A DNA stretch of 64,000 bases from Escherichia coli (GCF_003334335.1 NZ_QOWQ01000001.1); one strand, 5' to 3'; positions 48,574 to 63,829 are shown, counted from the first letter of the stretch. Numbers and translations are program-made. The notes: a model not told the origin generated them from the sequence alone.

Positions 48574-50199
48574 ATGAATATTTTCACAGAGGCTGCAAAA
48601 CTCGAAGAGCAAAATTGTCCGTTTGCTATGGCGCAAATTGTTGATAGCCGAGGCTCGACTCCCCGCCATTCTGCACAAATGTTAGTGCGCGCCGATGGTT
48701 CTATCGTCGGTACAATTGGTGGCGGAATGGTTGAGCGGAAGGTGATTGAAGAGTCGCTTCAGGCATTGCAGGAACGTAAGCCGCGATTATTCCATGGACG
48801 TATGGCTCGTAACGGTGCGGATGCTGTCGGGTCAGATTGTGGAGGTGCAATGTCAGTATTTATCAGCGTCCATGGTATGCGTCCACGTCTGGTGTTGATT
48901 GGCGCGGGGCATGTCAACCGGGCGATAGCCCAGAGTGCGGCGCTATTAGGATTTGATATTGCCGTTGCTGATATTTATCGCGAAAGCCTCAATCCTGAAC
49001 TATTCCCACCATCAACCACGCTTCTCCATGCTGAGTCGTTTGGTGCGGCAGTGGAAGCACTGGATATTCGCCCTGATAATTTTGTCCTGATTGCCACGAA
49101 TAATCAGGATCGTGAAGCCCTCGACAAACTCATTGAACAGCCCATTGCATGGTTGGGGTTGCTGGCAAGTCGTCGCAAGGTTCAGCTTTTCCTGCGTCAA
49201 TTGCGTGAGAAAGGCGTGGCTGAAGAACATATTGCCCGTTTACATGCGCCCGTTGGTTACAACATAGGTGCGGAAACGCCGCAGGAGATCGCCATCAGCG
49301 TGCTGGCAGAAATATTACAGGTGAAAAATAACGCGCCGGGTGGGCTGATGATGAAACCTTCTCATCCTTCCGGACACCAGCTGGTGGTGATTCGCGGTGC
49401 GGGAGATATCGCCAGTGGTGTGGCGCTACGTCTGTATCATGCGGGTTTTAAAGTGATCATGCTGGAAGTGGAAAAACCGACAGTGATTCGTTGTACCGTG
49501 GCGTTTGCCCAGGCCGTGTTCGATGGCGAAATGACGGTCGAAGGCGTCACTGCTCGCCTGGCAACCAGCTCTGCGGAAGCGATGAAACTTACCGAACGCG
49601 GATTCATTCCTGTGATGGTAGATCCCGCCTGTTCATTGCTTGATGAACTGAAACCGCTTTGCGTGGTGGACGCTATTCTGGCGAAACAGAATTTGGGAAC
49701 GCGGGCAGATATGGCACCAGTAACAATCGCGCTTGGGCCGGGCTTTACTGCTGGGAAGGATTGTCATGCGGTAATTGAAACAAATCGCGGGCACTGGCTC
49801 GGTCAGGTGATTTACTCTGGTTGTGCGCAGGAGAATACCGGTGTTCCTGGCAATATTATGGGGCATACCACCCGACGGGTGATCCGTGCTCCTGCTGCAG
49901 GCATTATGCGATCCAACGTGAAATTAGGCGATCTGGTGAAAGAGGGCGATGTGATTGCCTGGATTGGTGAGCATGAAATTAAAGCACCGTTGACGGGGAT
50001 GGTGCGTGGCTTGTTGAACGACGGCCTGGCAGTGGTTGGTGGTTTTAAAATTGGTGATATCGATCCTCGTGGTGAAACCGCTGATTTCACCAGCGTTTCT
50101 GATAAAGCCCGGGCGATTGGCGGCGGCGTACTTGAGGCGTTAATGATGTTGATGCATCAGGGCGTGAAAGCGACAAAAGAAGTGCTGGAAGTGGCTTAA
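48574..50199 (+). CDS. yqeB: XdhC/CoxI-family Mo-cofactor insertion domain fused to a YqeB-specific C-terminal domain
   Basis: 541-aa ORF with GAGG 6 nt upstream. N-terminal region FAMAQIVDSRGSTPRHSAQMLVRADGSIVGTIGGG and Rossmann-like LVLIGAGHVNRAIA. Confidence 0.9.
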   Translation: MNIFTEAAKLEEQNCPFAMAQIVDSRGSTPRHSAQMLVRADGSIVGTIGGGMVERKVIEESLQALQERKPRLFHGRMARNGADAVGSDCGGAMSVFISVHGMRPRLVLIGAGHVNRAIAQSAALLGFDIAVADIYRESLNPELFPPSTTLLHAESFGAAVEALDIRPDNFVLIATNNQDREALDKLIEQPIAWLGLLASRRKVQLFLRQLREKGVAEEHIARLHAPVGYNIGAETPQEIAISVLAEILQVKNNAPGGLMMKPSHPSGHQLVVIRGAGDIASGVALRLYHAGFKVIMLEVEKPTVIRCTVAFAQAVFDGEMTVEGVTARLATSSAEAMKLTERGFIPVMVDPACSLLDELKPLCVVDAILAKQNLGTRADMAPVTIALGPGFTAGKDCHAVIETNRGHWLGQVIYSGCAQENTGVPGNIMGHTTRRVIRAPAAGIMRSNVKLGDLVKEGDVIAWIGEHEIKAPLTGMVRGLLNDGLAVVGGFKIGDIDPRGETADFTSVSDKARAIGGGVLEALMMLMHQGVKATKEVLEVA

Positions 50200-50206
50200 A
50201 TGAAAA

Positions 50207-50234
50207 TGGCCGGATGGTATTACCCACCCGGCCT
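50207..50234. terminator. 28-nt hairpin, copy 1 (TGGCCGGATGGTATTACCCACCCGGCCT), next to the yqeB stop
   Basis: 10-bp stem with one mismatch. The T-rich run (ATTTTCATTT) lies on the minus-strand side, so it would stop yqeA-direction transcripts. Confidence 0.45.
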
Positions 50235-50256
50235 GAGACTGATGACAAACGCCAAA

Positions 50257-50357
50257 TTGCCTGATGCGCTACGCTTATCAGGCCTACAAGTGCATTGCAA
50301 TCTATTGAATTTGCGATGTTTTGTAGGACGGATAAGGCGCTCGCGCCGCATCCGGCA
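50257..50357. repeat. BIME: two inverted REP units
   Basis: TTGCCTGATGCGCTACGCTTATCAGGCCTACA ... TGTAGGACGGATAAGGCGCTCGCGCCGCATCCGGCA. Confidence 0.9.
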
Positions 50358-50386
50358 TCAACAAAGCGCACTTACTTGACAATCTT

Positions 50387-50414
50387 TGGCCGGATGGTAT
50401 TACCCACCCGGCCT
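50387..50414. terminator. 28-nt hairpin, copy 2; exact duplicate of 50207-50234, located 180 bp away next to the yqeA stop
   Basis: Identical 28-mer. The T-rich run (TTTAAATT) lies on the plus-strand side, so it would stop yqeB-direction transcripts. Confidence 0.45.
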
Positions 50415-50419
50415 TTAAA

Positions 50420-51352
50420 TTACTGACAAATCACCGTTCCTGTTTTGCCTTCAATCCCTTCTTTCGCTTTGCTCAATACGGTAATCAGTGCTTCACGACC
50501 TGCGCGAGAGCGAGCAAACGAGGCGGCAGCTTCCACTTTAGGCAGCATAGAACCTTTCGCAAAATGACCTTCTTCGATAAAGCGTTCAGCATCACTTAAT
50601 GACAGGCGATCGAGCCACTGTTCATTCTCTTTACCGAAGTTAATGGCCACTTTTTCTACCGCAGTCAGAATGATCAGCATATCGGCATCAATCATTTCTG
50701 CTAAACGGGCGCTGGCCCAGTCTTTATCGATAACCGCGCTGGCACCACGCAGATGGTTACCTTCACGAATAACAGGGATACCACCACCGCCAACGGTGAT
50801 CACCACCTGACCTGCATCTACCAGAGCTTTAACCGTTTCTTTTTCAATGATATCAACCGGTTTTGGCGAGGCAACAACACGGCGATAGCCGCGACCAGCA
50901 TCTTCTTTCAGAGTGTAACCCTGTTTTGTCAGTTGCTCTGCTTCTTGCTCGGTAAAGAACGAACCGATCGGCTTGGTCGGGTTGAGGAATGCCGGATCGT
51001 TAGCGTCGACTTCGACCTGAGTAACCAGCGTTGCTACAGGTTTATTAATGCCCCGAGAAAGCAGTTCTTCTCTTAAAGCGTTTTGTAGATCGTAACCAAT
51101 ATAACCCTGGCTTAATGCAACACAGACAGACATCGGCAGCATTGGCGAGTGCGCTTCAGTTTTTGCGGCAGCTTCAAAGGCCTGGTTAATCATGCCCACC
51201 TGCGGCCCGTTACCATGAGTGACGATAACTTCATGTCCCTGGGCAATTAAATCAACAATTGCCTGAGAAGTAATTTTTACCGCTTTCATTTGCCCGGCCA
51301 GGTCATCGCCCAGCGCATTCCCGCCCAGGGCGAGAACAATTTTCTTACTCAT
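50420..51352 (-). CDS. yqeA: Carbamate kinase-like protein
   Basis: 310-aa ORF with IVLALGGNAL and VTHGNGPQVG motifs. Confidence 0.92.
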   Translation of the reverse strand: MSKKIVLALGGNALGDDLAGQMKAVKITSQAIVDLIAQGHEVIVTHGNGPQVGMINQAFEAAAKTEAHSPMLPMSVCVALSQGYIGYDLQNALREELLSRGINKPVATLVTQVEVDANDPAFLNPTKPIGSFFTEQEAEQLTKQGYTLKEDAGRGYRRVVASPKPVDIIEKETVKALVDAGQVVITVGGGGIPVIREGNHLRGASAVIDKDWASARLAEMIDADMLIILTAVEKVAINFGKENEQWLDRLSLSDAERFIEEGHFAKGSMLPKVEAAASFARSRAGREALITVLSKAKEGIEGKTGTVICQ

Positions 51353-63755: not shown

Positions 63756-63829
63756 GCGGGCGTAGTTCAATGGTAGAACGAGAGCTTCCCAAGCTCTATA
63801 CGAGGGTTCGATTCCCTTCGCCCGCTCCA
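63756..63829 (+). tRNA. glyU: tRNA-Gly (anticodon CCC)
   Basis: GCGGGCGTAGTTCAATGGTAGAACGAGAGCTTCCCAAGCTCTATACGAGGGTTCGATTCCCTTCGCCCGCTCCA. It has a 7-bp acceptor stem, anticodon loop CTTCCCAAG, a GTTCGATTC T-loop and an encoded CCA. Confidence 0.95.

Follow-up and report, generated by a model that had tools for sequence, protein, structure and literature searches.

A terminator hairpin between yqeB and yqeA of Escherichia coli, very likely duplicated by the insertion of a BIME-1 element

Why do two identical hairpins stand on either side of a repetitive element between two convergent genes? The arrangement is found in a 64-kb stretch of Escherichia coli DNA (64,000 nt of NZ_QOWQ01000001.1; called the window here, with coordinates counted from its first letter), in the spacer between yqeB and yqeA. 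There, a bacterial interspersed mosaic element (BIME) with two inverted repetitive extragenic palindromic (REP) units is bracketed by identical 28-nt hairpins that lie 180 bp apart from start to start. An earlier note on this DNA, made from the sequence alone, had described this layout, and an exact repeat search and the open reading frames (ORFs) bear it out. The note offered two explanations. In the first, each convergent transcript reads through its near hairpin and the BIME and stops at the far hairpin, which would give about 200 nt of complementary 3' untranslated region (UTR). In the second, offered as an alternative, the duplication is the footprint of a BIME inserted into a single bidirectional terminator. 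It is this alternative that has gained ground, through 180-bp-shorter alleles with one hairpin and through the same architecture at many other loci. The two hairpins are very likely one bidirectional terminator that was duplicated when a 152-nt BIME-1 inserted, with precise loss and tandem amplification of the element following from the repeat. Taken alone, the locus is ordinary; what is of interest is a footprint that is defined by structure and recurs.

The 28-mer, TGGCCGGATGGTATTACCCACCCGGCCT, has exactly two copies in the window, both on the + strand, and no near-match with up to three mismatches was found in the 64 kb (the expectation from shuffled sequence is zero). The 220-nt spacer that holds the two copies is 100% identical to positions 3,012,394-3,012,613 of K-12 MG1655, in the opposite orientation, and the curated K-12 record lists no repeat feature in it. 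The full locus is present in 1,649 of 5,426 complete E. coli genomes. In the remaining genomes (about 70%), every sampled record is exactly 180 bp shorter, at 441 vs 621 bp. When short alleles from O157, a B2 avian pathogenic E. coli strain and WEM25 are aligned, they read AAATGAAAA, one hairpin, and then TT(T/A)AAATTACTG, with no BIME. The single hairpin has an A-tract on one side and a T-tract on the other, as in a bidirectional terminator. Since the shorter alleles keep one hairpin, the 28-mer acts like a duplicated target of 26-28 nt, with the A- and T-tracts left out of the duplication. Also, the 28-nt repeat abuts the 152-nt insert and the empty site holds one copy, which is the pattern of a target-site duplication.

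Two further records concern the alleles themselves. In the long alleles of E. coli 118UI, M7424 and MSB1_7C, a 1-nt deletion (CCC-CCCGG) is present in copy 1 only, so the hairpin copies are not always identical in E. coli. The record NZ_CP026085.1, labeled E. coli DH5alpha, is a short allele whose flanks are 97.9% identical to K-12. One would not expect a short allele in a derivative of K-12, and the record may be mislabeled.

The argument for insertion with duplication comes from recurrence at many loci with different hairpins. For example, at narP/ccmH and uspB/pitA a near-identical element sits between two copies of hairpins that are specific to each locus and different from one another (AGCCCGATGG...CCATCGGGC and AGCGGGCCAG...CTGACCCGCT, respectively). 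For a wider census, one genome per species was scanned with the left-end motif of the element, which gave 92 stretches, almost all from Escherichia species, Shigella, Pseudocitrobacter, Enterobacter hormaechei and one other Enterobacteriaceae genome. A script grouped 111 copies into 40 loci. A flank-to-flank repeat scoring 13.5-37 was found in 17 of the 40 loci; among mismatched-locus controls (n = 1,560), the 99th percentile of this score was 9 and the maximum 14. The repeat is present in 14 of 28 non-redundant, non-tandem, full-length copies. The other 14 comprise one with two diverged hairpins, four with a flush hairpin on the left only, four on the right only, and five with none. At control positions, flush hairpins were seen in 24 of 320 cases (7.5%).

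The 16 repeats that were tabulated have unrelated sequences, yet all of them are stable hairpins (-9 to -19 kcal/mol) with a length of 16-28 nt. The exception is one 34-nt alignment, from a locus flagged as tandem, which extends 4 nt into the element end. All 16 are flush, within 1-2 nt at both element ends, with an insert of 147-154 nt, and the outer side of the left copy typically carries an A-run, that of the right copy a T-run. The length of the duplication follows the size of each hairpin and does not have the fixed value that a transposase would set. This means that the duplication is defined by structure and is not a classical target-site duplication. The split of the A- and T-tracts between the two copies is then an automatic result of duplicating the hairpin only.

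These repeats bear on two other explanations. The hairpins could be part of the element itself, as REP-like terminal palindromes of a 208-nt composite element. Their arms, GCCGGATG/CATCCGGC, do look like REP outer stems, a 236-nt stretch with the 208-nt unit folds as one long imperfect palindrome, and REP209 and REP160, as annotated, share 28-29 nt with terminator hairpins (table in bioRxiv 10.64898/2026.03.23.713779), which means that annotators had extended the REP over them. We regard this as extremely unlikely, however, as the flanking hairpins are unrelated in sequence at 16 loci, alleles that lack the element keep exactly one hairpin in place, and the 28-mer is found nowhere else in the window. 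The duplication could also be independent of the insertion, either because a terminator was first duplicated by slippage or in tandem and the element inserted later, or because only insertions that kept a hairpin on each side survived. Selection for a terminator beside both genes is plausible, and half of the copies have no clear duplication. Against this, no tandem-hairpin allele free of the element was seen among the yqeB/yqeA or rutG/ymdF alleles, and in every case the repeats abut the two ends of the element to within 1-2 nt, which an origin in two steps does not predict. An independent duplication is therefore very unlikely, if a little less so than the composite element.

The flanking repeats have also left traces of their later history. 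On contigs of Escherichia sp. MOD1-EC7003, tandem arrays are found in which the unit is one BIME-1 plus one hairpin, with 7.2 copies of 182 nt (96% matches) in one array and 7.9 copies of 168 nt in another (L027 4602-5905 and L095 4111-5441 in the census stretches), and further arrays on L018, L051 and L094. Such arrays would be the expected product of unequal exchange between flanking hairpin repeats; BIME-1 is described as single-copy in K-12. In E. albertii (L010), the two hairpin copies differ by a compensatory pair change from T-A to C-G (CGGGTGGTAACACCACCCG vs CGGGTGGCAACGCCACCCG), and at several old loci the two copies differ mainly in the hairpin loops. Together, the compensatory change and the bias toward loops suggest that both copies are under selection to fold.

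A second site with long and short alleles is found at rutG/ymdF. Short E. coli alleles (446 bp; L105/L106) have one hairpin, CCGCCGGGGTAACCGGCGGTG, and K-12-type alleles (1,734 genomes; L104) have hairpin, element, hairpin. A divergent lineage (L081:1356-1986, - strand) also has hairpin, element, hairpin, and its element is in the orientation opposite to that of the K-12 type. At 86% identity, the two elements resemble each other no more than they resemble unrelated copies, so they are probably independent insertions at the same hairpin. An inversion through the palindromic flanks was considered as the source of the two orientations and is unlikely for the same reason.

What, then, is the inserted element? 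Over its full length, the 152-nt segment aligns with its counterparts at narP/ccmH and uspB/pitA, and likewise with about 110 from other genomes. Its parts follow in the order outer motif GAGACTGATGACAAACGC..., Y REP, linker, Z REP and second outer motif ...GCGCACTTACTTGACAATCTT, and its ends are imperfect inverted repeats, T(G/C)AGAYTGWTGACAA. The two inverted REP units that the earlier note had placed between the hairpins are thus the Y and Z units of Table 1. In the linker, a scan with the IHF consensus finds an IHF-like site at 50298-50310 on the - strand, ATTCAATAGATTG, with one mismatch to WATCAANNNNTTR; a predicted site with at most one mismatch is present in 28 of 31 related loci. The linker variant GTGCATTGCAATC is unique to the yqeB/yqeA locus. 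Inverted Y and Z REPs, a long linker with a predicted IHF site, and a single non-tandem extragenic copy between the convergent stop codons of yqeB and yqeA are all features of BIME-1, and the element fits the BIME-1 (RIP/RIB) architecture as it is defined in PMC3333891. It is an ordinary BIME-1; that it occurs in K-12, and that strains differ in having it, are facts of a known kind.

Table 1. Coordinates of the genes, flanks, hairpins and element parts at yqeB/yqeA in the window (CDS, coding sequence)
Feature	Position	Strand	Basis
yqeB CDS (selenium-dependent molybdenum cofactor biosynthesis protein)	48574..50199; stop codon 50197-50199	+	ORF list; RefSeq annotation under BLAST matches
A-rich flank ATGAAAA, left of copy 1	50200..50206		Sequence; terminator scan; also in short alleles
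Hairpin copy 1, left copy of the putative duplicated target	50207..50234		Exact repeat; folding
BIME-1 / RIP-type element (REPIN-like), 152 nt, GAGACTGATGACAAACGC...CTTGACAATCTT	50235..50386	+	Missing, with one hairpin, from 441-bp alleles
Y-type REP (palindromic unit), ends CTAC	50258..50287	+	Exact 29-mer common to other copies; inverted repeats I1 and I5
Linker L, 35 nt, between the REPs	50288..50322		IHF-consensus scan; linker 47-mer search
Z-type REP, starts GTAG, inverted vs Y REP	50323..50357	+	Sequence; inverted repeats; alignment
Hairpin copy 2, right copy of the putative duplicated target	50387..50414		Exact repeat; SEnd-seq overlap
T-rich flank TTTAAATT, right of copy 2	50414..50421	+	Sequence; TTTAAA or TTAAAA after the single hairpin of short alleles
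yqeA CDS (arcC-type carbamate kinase), convergent with yqeB	50420..51352	-	ORF list; RefSeq annotations

Elsewhere in the window, Rfam models match at their gathering scores to a 6S RNA (6647-6830, -), a SIB RNA (5848-5998, -), a naRNA4-type REP doublet that is BIME-2-like (20341-20418, -) and a tRNA (63756-63826, +). The naRNA4 model does not match the BIME-1 at yqeB/yqeA.

The geometry of the two hairpins is as the earlier note had drawn it, with an A-run to the left of copy 1, which is a U-tract on the - strand, and a T-run to the right of copy 2. The stem-loop proper of copy 1 spans 50208-50233 (GGCCGGATGG/CCACCCGGCC, with a loop of 6 nt). The sequence AAATGAAAA lies upstream of it, so that the - strand reads AUUUUCAUUU after the hairpin, and the A-rich flank itself becomes the U-tract AUUUUCAU. 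Copy 1 on the - strand is the only one that a consensus terminator scan flags (50233-50208, 10 pairs, then ATTTTCATTT). Copy 2 on the + strand is not flagged; its stem is interrupted and its tract, UUUAAAUU, is weak. No U-tract follows copy 1 on the + strand or copy 2 on the - strand. The A-rich flank and the T-rich flank, which is a weak U-tract for the yqeB-sense transcript, are the unduplicated parts of the original bidirectional terminator.

Each hairpin copy folds at -16.7 kcal/mol as + strand (yqeB-sense) RNA, with an A.C mismatch in the stem, and at -22.6 kcal/mol as - strand (yqeA-sense) RNA, in which the mismatch position becomes a G.U pair. The mismatch comes from the C in CCCACCCGG (50230 and 50410), a derived T-to-C change that is present in both copies. 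In yqeB-sense RNA, the stem with C has -16.7 kcal/mol vs -21.4 kcal/mol for the B2-type stem; in yqeA-sense RNA, the value is -22.6 kcal/mol. Since the change makes an A.C mismatch in one sense and a G.U pair in the other, the hairpin is weakened for one gene only. The arms of this target hairpin, GCCGGATGG/CCATCCGGC (50208-50233), look like REP outer stems. The narP hairpin, GCCCGATGG/CCATCGGGC (L003, about 606-630), differs from it by a compensatory C/G swap, and such a likeness to REP outer stems was not seen in the remaining 14 target hairpins.

Where the transcripts end can be read from the SEnd-seq bidirectional terminators of Ju et al., which are re-tabulated in Table S16 of bioRxiv 10.64898/2026.03.23.713779. 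Entry 235 of that table, labeled yqeB:yqeA and REP209, is a 38-nt convergent overlap at K-12 3,012,393-3,012,430 with the sequence AAUUUAAAGGCCGGGUGGGUAAUACCAUCCGGCCAAAGA, seen in both log and stationary phase. By its coordinates, it maps to 50383-50420 of the window, around copy 2 only, and no overlap site at copy 1 is listed in the table. The yqeB RNA thus runs over the first hairpin and the element to end in the weak U-tract that follows copy 2. For yqeA, the 3' end is mapped about 4 nt beyond its near hairpin, which is also copy 2 and has no U-tract on that strand. In vivo RNA 3' ends are found at copy 2 only, and an SEnd-seq end may reflect termination or exonuclease trimming back alike. 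For uspB/pitA, the table has stationary-phase overlap sites at each of the two hairpins (K-12 3,639,152-3,639,183 and 3,639,328-3,639,360). For rutG/ymdF and narP/ccmH it has just one of the duplicated hairpins, bordered by the element end and, on its other side, by the U-tract (bioRxiv 10.64898/2026.03.23.713779). With one or two copies coinciding with SEnd-seq sites at yqeA/yqeB, rutG/ymdF, narP/ccmH and uspB/pitA, the hairpins are probably real terminators.

These ends decide how much is left of the idea that the paired hairpins are a functional design, in which transcripts skip the near hairpin that lacks a U-tract, stop at the far one, and share about 200 nt of complementary 3' UTR. The U-tracts are indeed placed as the idea needs, the yqeB-sense RNA does end after its far hairpin, and the listing of both copies at uspB/pitA points to some read-through to the far hairpins in both directions. 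The yqeA-sense RNA, in contrast, has its 3' end just past its near hairpin, so the claim that each transcript stops at the far hairpin holds for yqeB and, in these data, not for yqeA. In place of 200 nt of complementary UTR there is the single 38-nt overlap around copy 2, with none listed at copy 1. Also, selection is not needed to explain why the A- and T-tracts are split, since duplicating the hairpin alone has this automatic result and unrelated loci show it too, and the whole arrangement is missing from 70% of E. coli genomes. A functional design is thus distinctly unlikely.

How old is the insertion at yqeB/yqeA? In E. whittamii, an element is found at the identical left junction of the locus (L071, about 2870-3040, - strand). 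This copy lacks the Z REP and the right outer motif; its GTAGG is fused to the hairpin GGCCGGATG-GTGTCGA-CATCCGGCC, after which the same right flank follows. The loop of the fused hairpin is unlike that of copy 1, and one possibility is that the junction arose by a microhomology deletion between the REP stem and a similar hairpin stem, followed by substitutions. When the partly deleted allele was used as a query, no E. coli record with that form was found. The E. whittamii and window copies have in common a linker variant, GTGCATT(G/A)CAATC, that no other copy in the census carries, and the linker 47-mer has one copy in each of 1,646 E. coli genomes, with no further occurrence among the 5,426. 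The divergence of the E. whittamii locus is about 8% inside the element vs about 10% in the coding flanks. By this comparison, the shared linker variant, the single-copy linker and the similar divergence of element and flanks identify the E. whittamii copy as orthologous, and the insertion would be older than E. coli. Independent insertions from a shared master copy were considered for the E. whittamii element and rejected, as the linker 47-mer occurs nowhere else.

Among E. coli long alleles, the element is almost invariant on different flank haplotypes, and two haplotypes (C/TTTAAA/CCTG and C/TTAAAA/CCGG) each occur in both long and short form. At a minimum, two indel events that were independent of each other and involved an identical element are needed; as deletions through the 28-nt repeats these would be easy, as insertions implausible. 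Many of the short E. coli alleles are therefore probably secondary, precise losses through the repeat and not the untouched ancestral state. In line with this, the abstract of a 1997 paper by Bachellier and colleagues reportedly speaks of "excisions of a whole BIME-1." The comparison of the spacer with strains lacking the BIME, which the earlier note had proposed as a check, thus gives a divided answer: the single hairpin is there as foreseen, but in many strains it is probably not ancestral, and the insertion is old.

The opposing view is that the element inserted recently into a one-hairpin target in one E. coli lineage (K-12 or phylogroup A type) and that all short alleles are untouched ancestors. 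Several observations fit it. The two hairpin copies are 100% identical, O157 and WEM25 have the derived C in their one hairpin as well (B2 strains have T), and the near invariance of the element among long alleles is as expected. There is no long allele on a B2-type background; a synthetic query with T in both hairpins showed that none exists, with best matches of 98.7-98.8% identity, and a search of metagenomes for the junction of T-hairpin and element gave 0 matches. A recent insertion does not explain, however, why E. whittamii has the element at the identical junction with the locus-specific linker and a divergence near that of the flanks. Nor is there a second copy of the linker in the 5,426 genomes from which independent insertions could have come, and the two haplotypes that are each long and short would need at least two insertions of an identical element. 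We find a recent insertion unlikely, though less so than a functional design.

In other lineages the same gene junction has taken a different course. YqeB homologues with 94-95% identity are ordinary E. coli alleles, and those with 83-89% identity belong to other lineages with non-homologous spacers at the junction. Some of these (L109 and L110/L111) have one plain, non-homologous hairpin between yqeB and yqeA, and two with an 89% identical YqeB have different REP-like palindromes there (L107 3127-3229 and L108 2640-2729). The convergent spacer seems to have been colonized repeatedly.

The most probable order of events is as follows. The ancestral spacer held one bidirectional intrinsic terminator, made of an A-tract, a GC-rich stem-loop and a T-tract, into which the BIME-1, a non-autonomous element of the REPIN type, inserted. 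The alleles show the outcome, a duplicated stem-loop between unduplicated A- and T-tracts; the likely mechanism behind it is an inference. The target palindrome would be extruded or single-stranded, and each strand would be nicked at the 3' foot of its own hairpin, with the same nick on each strand since in a palindrome both strands form the same structure. The stagger between the nicks would then equal the hairpin length. Joining of the element ends and filling of the gaps would duplicate exactly the stem-loop, without the A- and T-tracts, to give hairpin, element, hairpin. Because the duplication is as long as the target stem-loop, it would be the structure and not the enzyme that sets the stagger. 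A near-palindromic element could enter in either orientation, as at rutG/ymdF. Fold-back synthesis of the second hairpin was considered and rejected, since both copies keep the same stem mismatch and loop; in Escherichia sp. E1V33, both narP hairpin copies have a common loop, which differs between the copies in E. coli.

The candidate enzyme would be TnpA_REP (RAYT), a HUH/Y1 transposase associated with REPs. Its only substrate is single-stranded DNA, it depends on a REP hairpin, and it cuts between C and T with low specificity (PMC3333891). In 12 of 16 junctions a T precedes GAGA and is itself usually preceded by C or T; at the other end, the boundary falls between AATC and TG. Once in place, the direct repeats allow precise loss, giving the 180-bp-shorter allele that has apparently arisen repeatedly in E. 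coli, as well as tandem amplification, as in the arrays of another Escherichia species. At yqeB/yqeA, the element now lies within the yqeB 3' UTR, with the yqeB RNA ending after copy 2 and the mapped yqeA RNA at the same hairpin. More generally, BIME-1 elements and REPINs may home to intrinsic-terminator hairpins and duplicate exactly the stem-loop, so that their insertion would not be semi-random, by symmetric nicking at the feet of the palindrome and most simply by TnpA_REP. This general rule we offer tentatively, as a possibility somewhat short of an even chance.

Several points weigh against the duplication of a terminator by the insertion. A presence/absence pair alone cannot separate insertion with duplication from deletion between pre-existing repeats, which is why recurrence has to carry the argument, and the census that documents recurrence took in only copies matching one exact 22-base pattern. 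Clear duplication is missing from half of the 28 copies, so either it is not obligatory or the copies decay. At yqeB/yqeA, the derived C is in both copies here and T is found in B2 strains and in E. whittamii, which, for an ancient insertion, calls for gene conversion, or for an unequal exchange, between the two copies. Exchange of this kind is plausible, given that arrays of element plus hairpin are repeated 7-8 times, with periods of 182 and 168 nt, in another Escherichia species. An untouched single copy of this hairpin was not recovered from Escherichia outgroups through YqeB homologues. The nicking at hairpin feet and the role of TnpA_REP are read from sequence patterns and not from an observed transposition event. 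Of the mechanisms studied, the closest is IS200/IS605-type Y1 transposition, and it yields no target duplication. Finally, selection probably adds to the pattern, as an insertion should do little harm if a hairpin remains beside each of the two stop codons.

No repeats in E. coli are more abundant than REPs and BIMEs; they have been known for 40 years, and their spread is still called unknown or semi-random. If the general rule offered above is true, a structure-defined duplication would be the first sequence footprint of the mechanism of REP dissemination. A duplication that recurs and matches the hairpin precisely offers a target rule that can be tested, and it constrains the mechanism, which would make two symmetric cuts at a palindrome's feet and place the element in either orientation. 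It would explain why REPs lie at gene 3' ends and in convergent spacers, and why they are so often located inside bidirectional terminators. The insertions would be tolerated because each gene keeps a hairpin beside its stop codon, and the flanking repeats would make the elements reversible, in line with the apparently recurrent loss at yqeB/yqeA and the arrays in another Escherichia lineage. At yqeB/yqeA, the insertion adds about 180 nt, including a BIME with a predicted IHF site, to the 3' UTR of yqeB in 30% of E. coli strains and not in the others.

How does this compare with known systems? In the accessible REP and BIME literature, neither a hairpin-length duplication nor the targeting of terminators is described; key BIME papers of the 1990s lie outside that coverage, and flanking repeats may have been noticed earlier, given that the REP209 and REP160 coordinates extend over the hairpins. 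In a 2026 preprint, REP insertion is called semi-random with an unknown mechanism, and 78 REPs are counted within bidirectional terminators (bioRxiv 10.64898/2026.03.23.713779). The closest relatives are the BIME-1 or RIP (RIB) elements (Gilson 1991; Bachellier 1994; Oppenheim 1993; Boccard and Prentki 1993; via PMC3333891). As here, they have inverted Y and Z REPs, a long linker with an IHF-type site and conserved outer motifs, and they occur as single extragenic copies at convergent 3' ends with presence/absence polymorphism among strains. The difference is that accessible papers describe the element alone, and here a locus-specific hairpin duplication flanks it.

The REPINs and their RAYT enzymes (Bertels and Rainey 2011, PMC3116915; Ton-Hoang 2012, PMC3333891) are alike in the inverted REP doublet, the fold into a long hairpin and the non-autonomous nature of the element, and in the presumed use of a single-strand HUH/Y1 transposase with cleavage between C and T beside hairpins, by which the element here may also have been mobilized. 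No target preference or duplication has been reported for them, in contrast to the terminator hairpin target and hairpin-sized footprint described here, and the mechanism of REPIN dissemination is described as unresolved (PMC8266576; bioRxiv 10.64898/2026.03.23.713779). The IS200/IS605 insertion sequences, which move by "peel and paste," use enzymes related to TnpA_REP, depend on hairpins and single-stranded DNA, and insert beside a defined sequence or structure. Unlike the element here, they insert 3' of a tetra- or pentanucleotide without duplication, whereas here a whole stem-loop of 16-28 nt is duplicated. Transposable elements of the miniature inverted-repeat kind (MITEs) and DDE transposons also have terminal inverted repeats, direct repeats of the target and empty sites with one copy, but DDE enzymes make a fixed duplication, typically of 2-9 bp, and here the length varies with the target hairpin.

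Other mobile elements recognize a DNA stem-loop and thereby insert into harmless extragenic sites, as IS1397, ISKpn1 and IS110-family insertion sequences do within REPs. Group IIC introns insert after intrinsic terminators. All of these insert inside or just after the hairpin and leave it unduplicated, and here the REP element is itself the invader. Bidirectional intrinsic terminators, lastly, are the proposed target (Ju et al. 2019 SEnd-seq, bioRxiv 10.64898/2026.03.23.713779). The short allele at yqeB/yqeA has their A-tract, stem-loop and T-tract, and copy 2 of the long allele is listed among them; unlike them, the long allele carries its A-tract and its T-tract on different hairpin copies, 180 bp apart.

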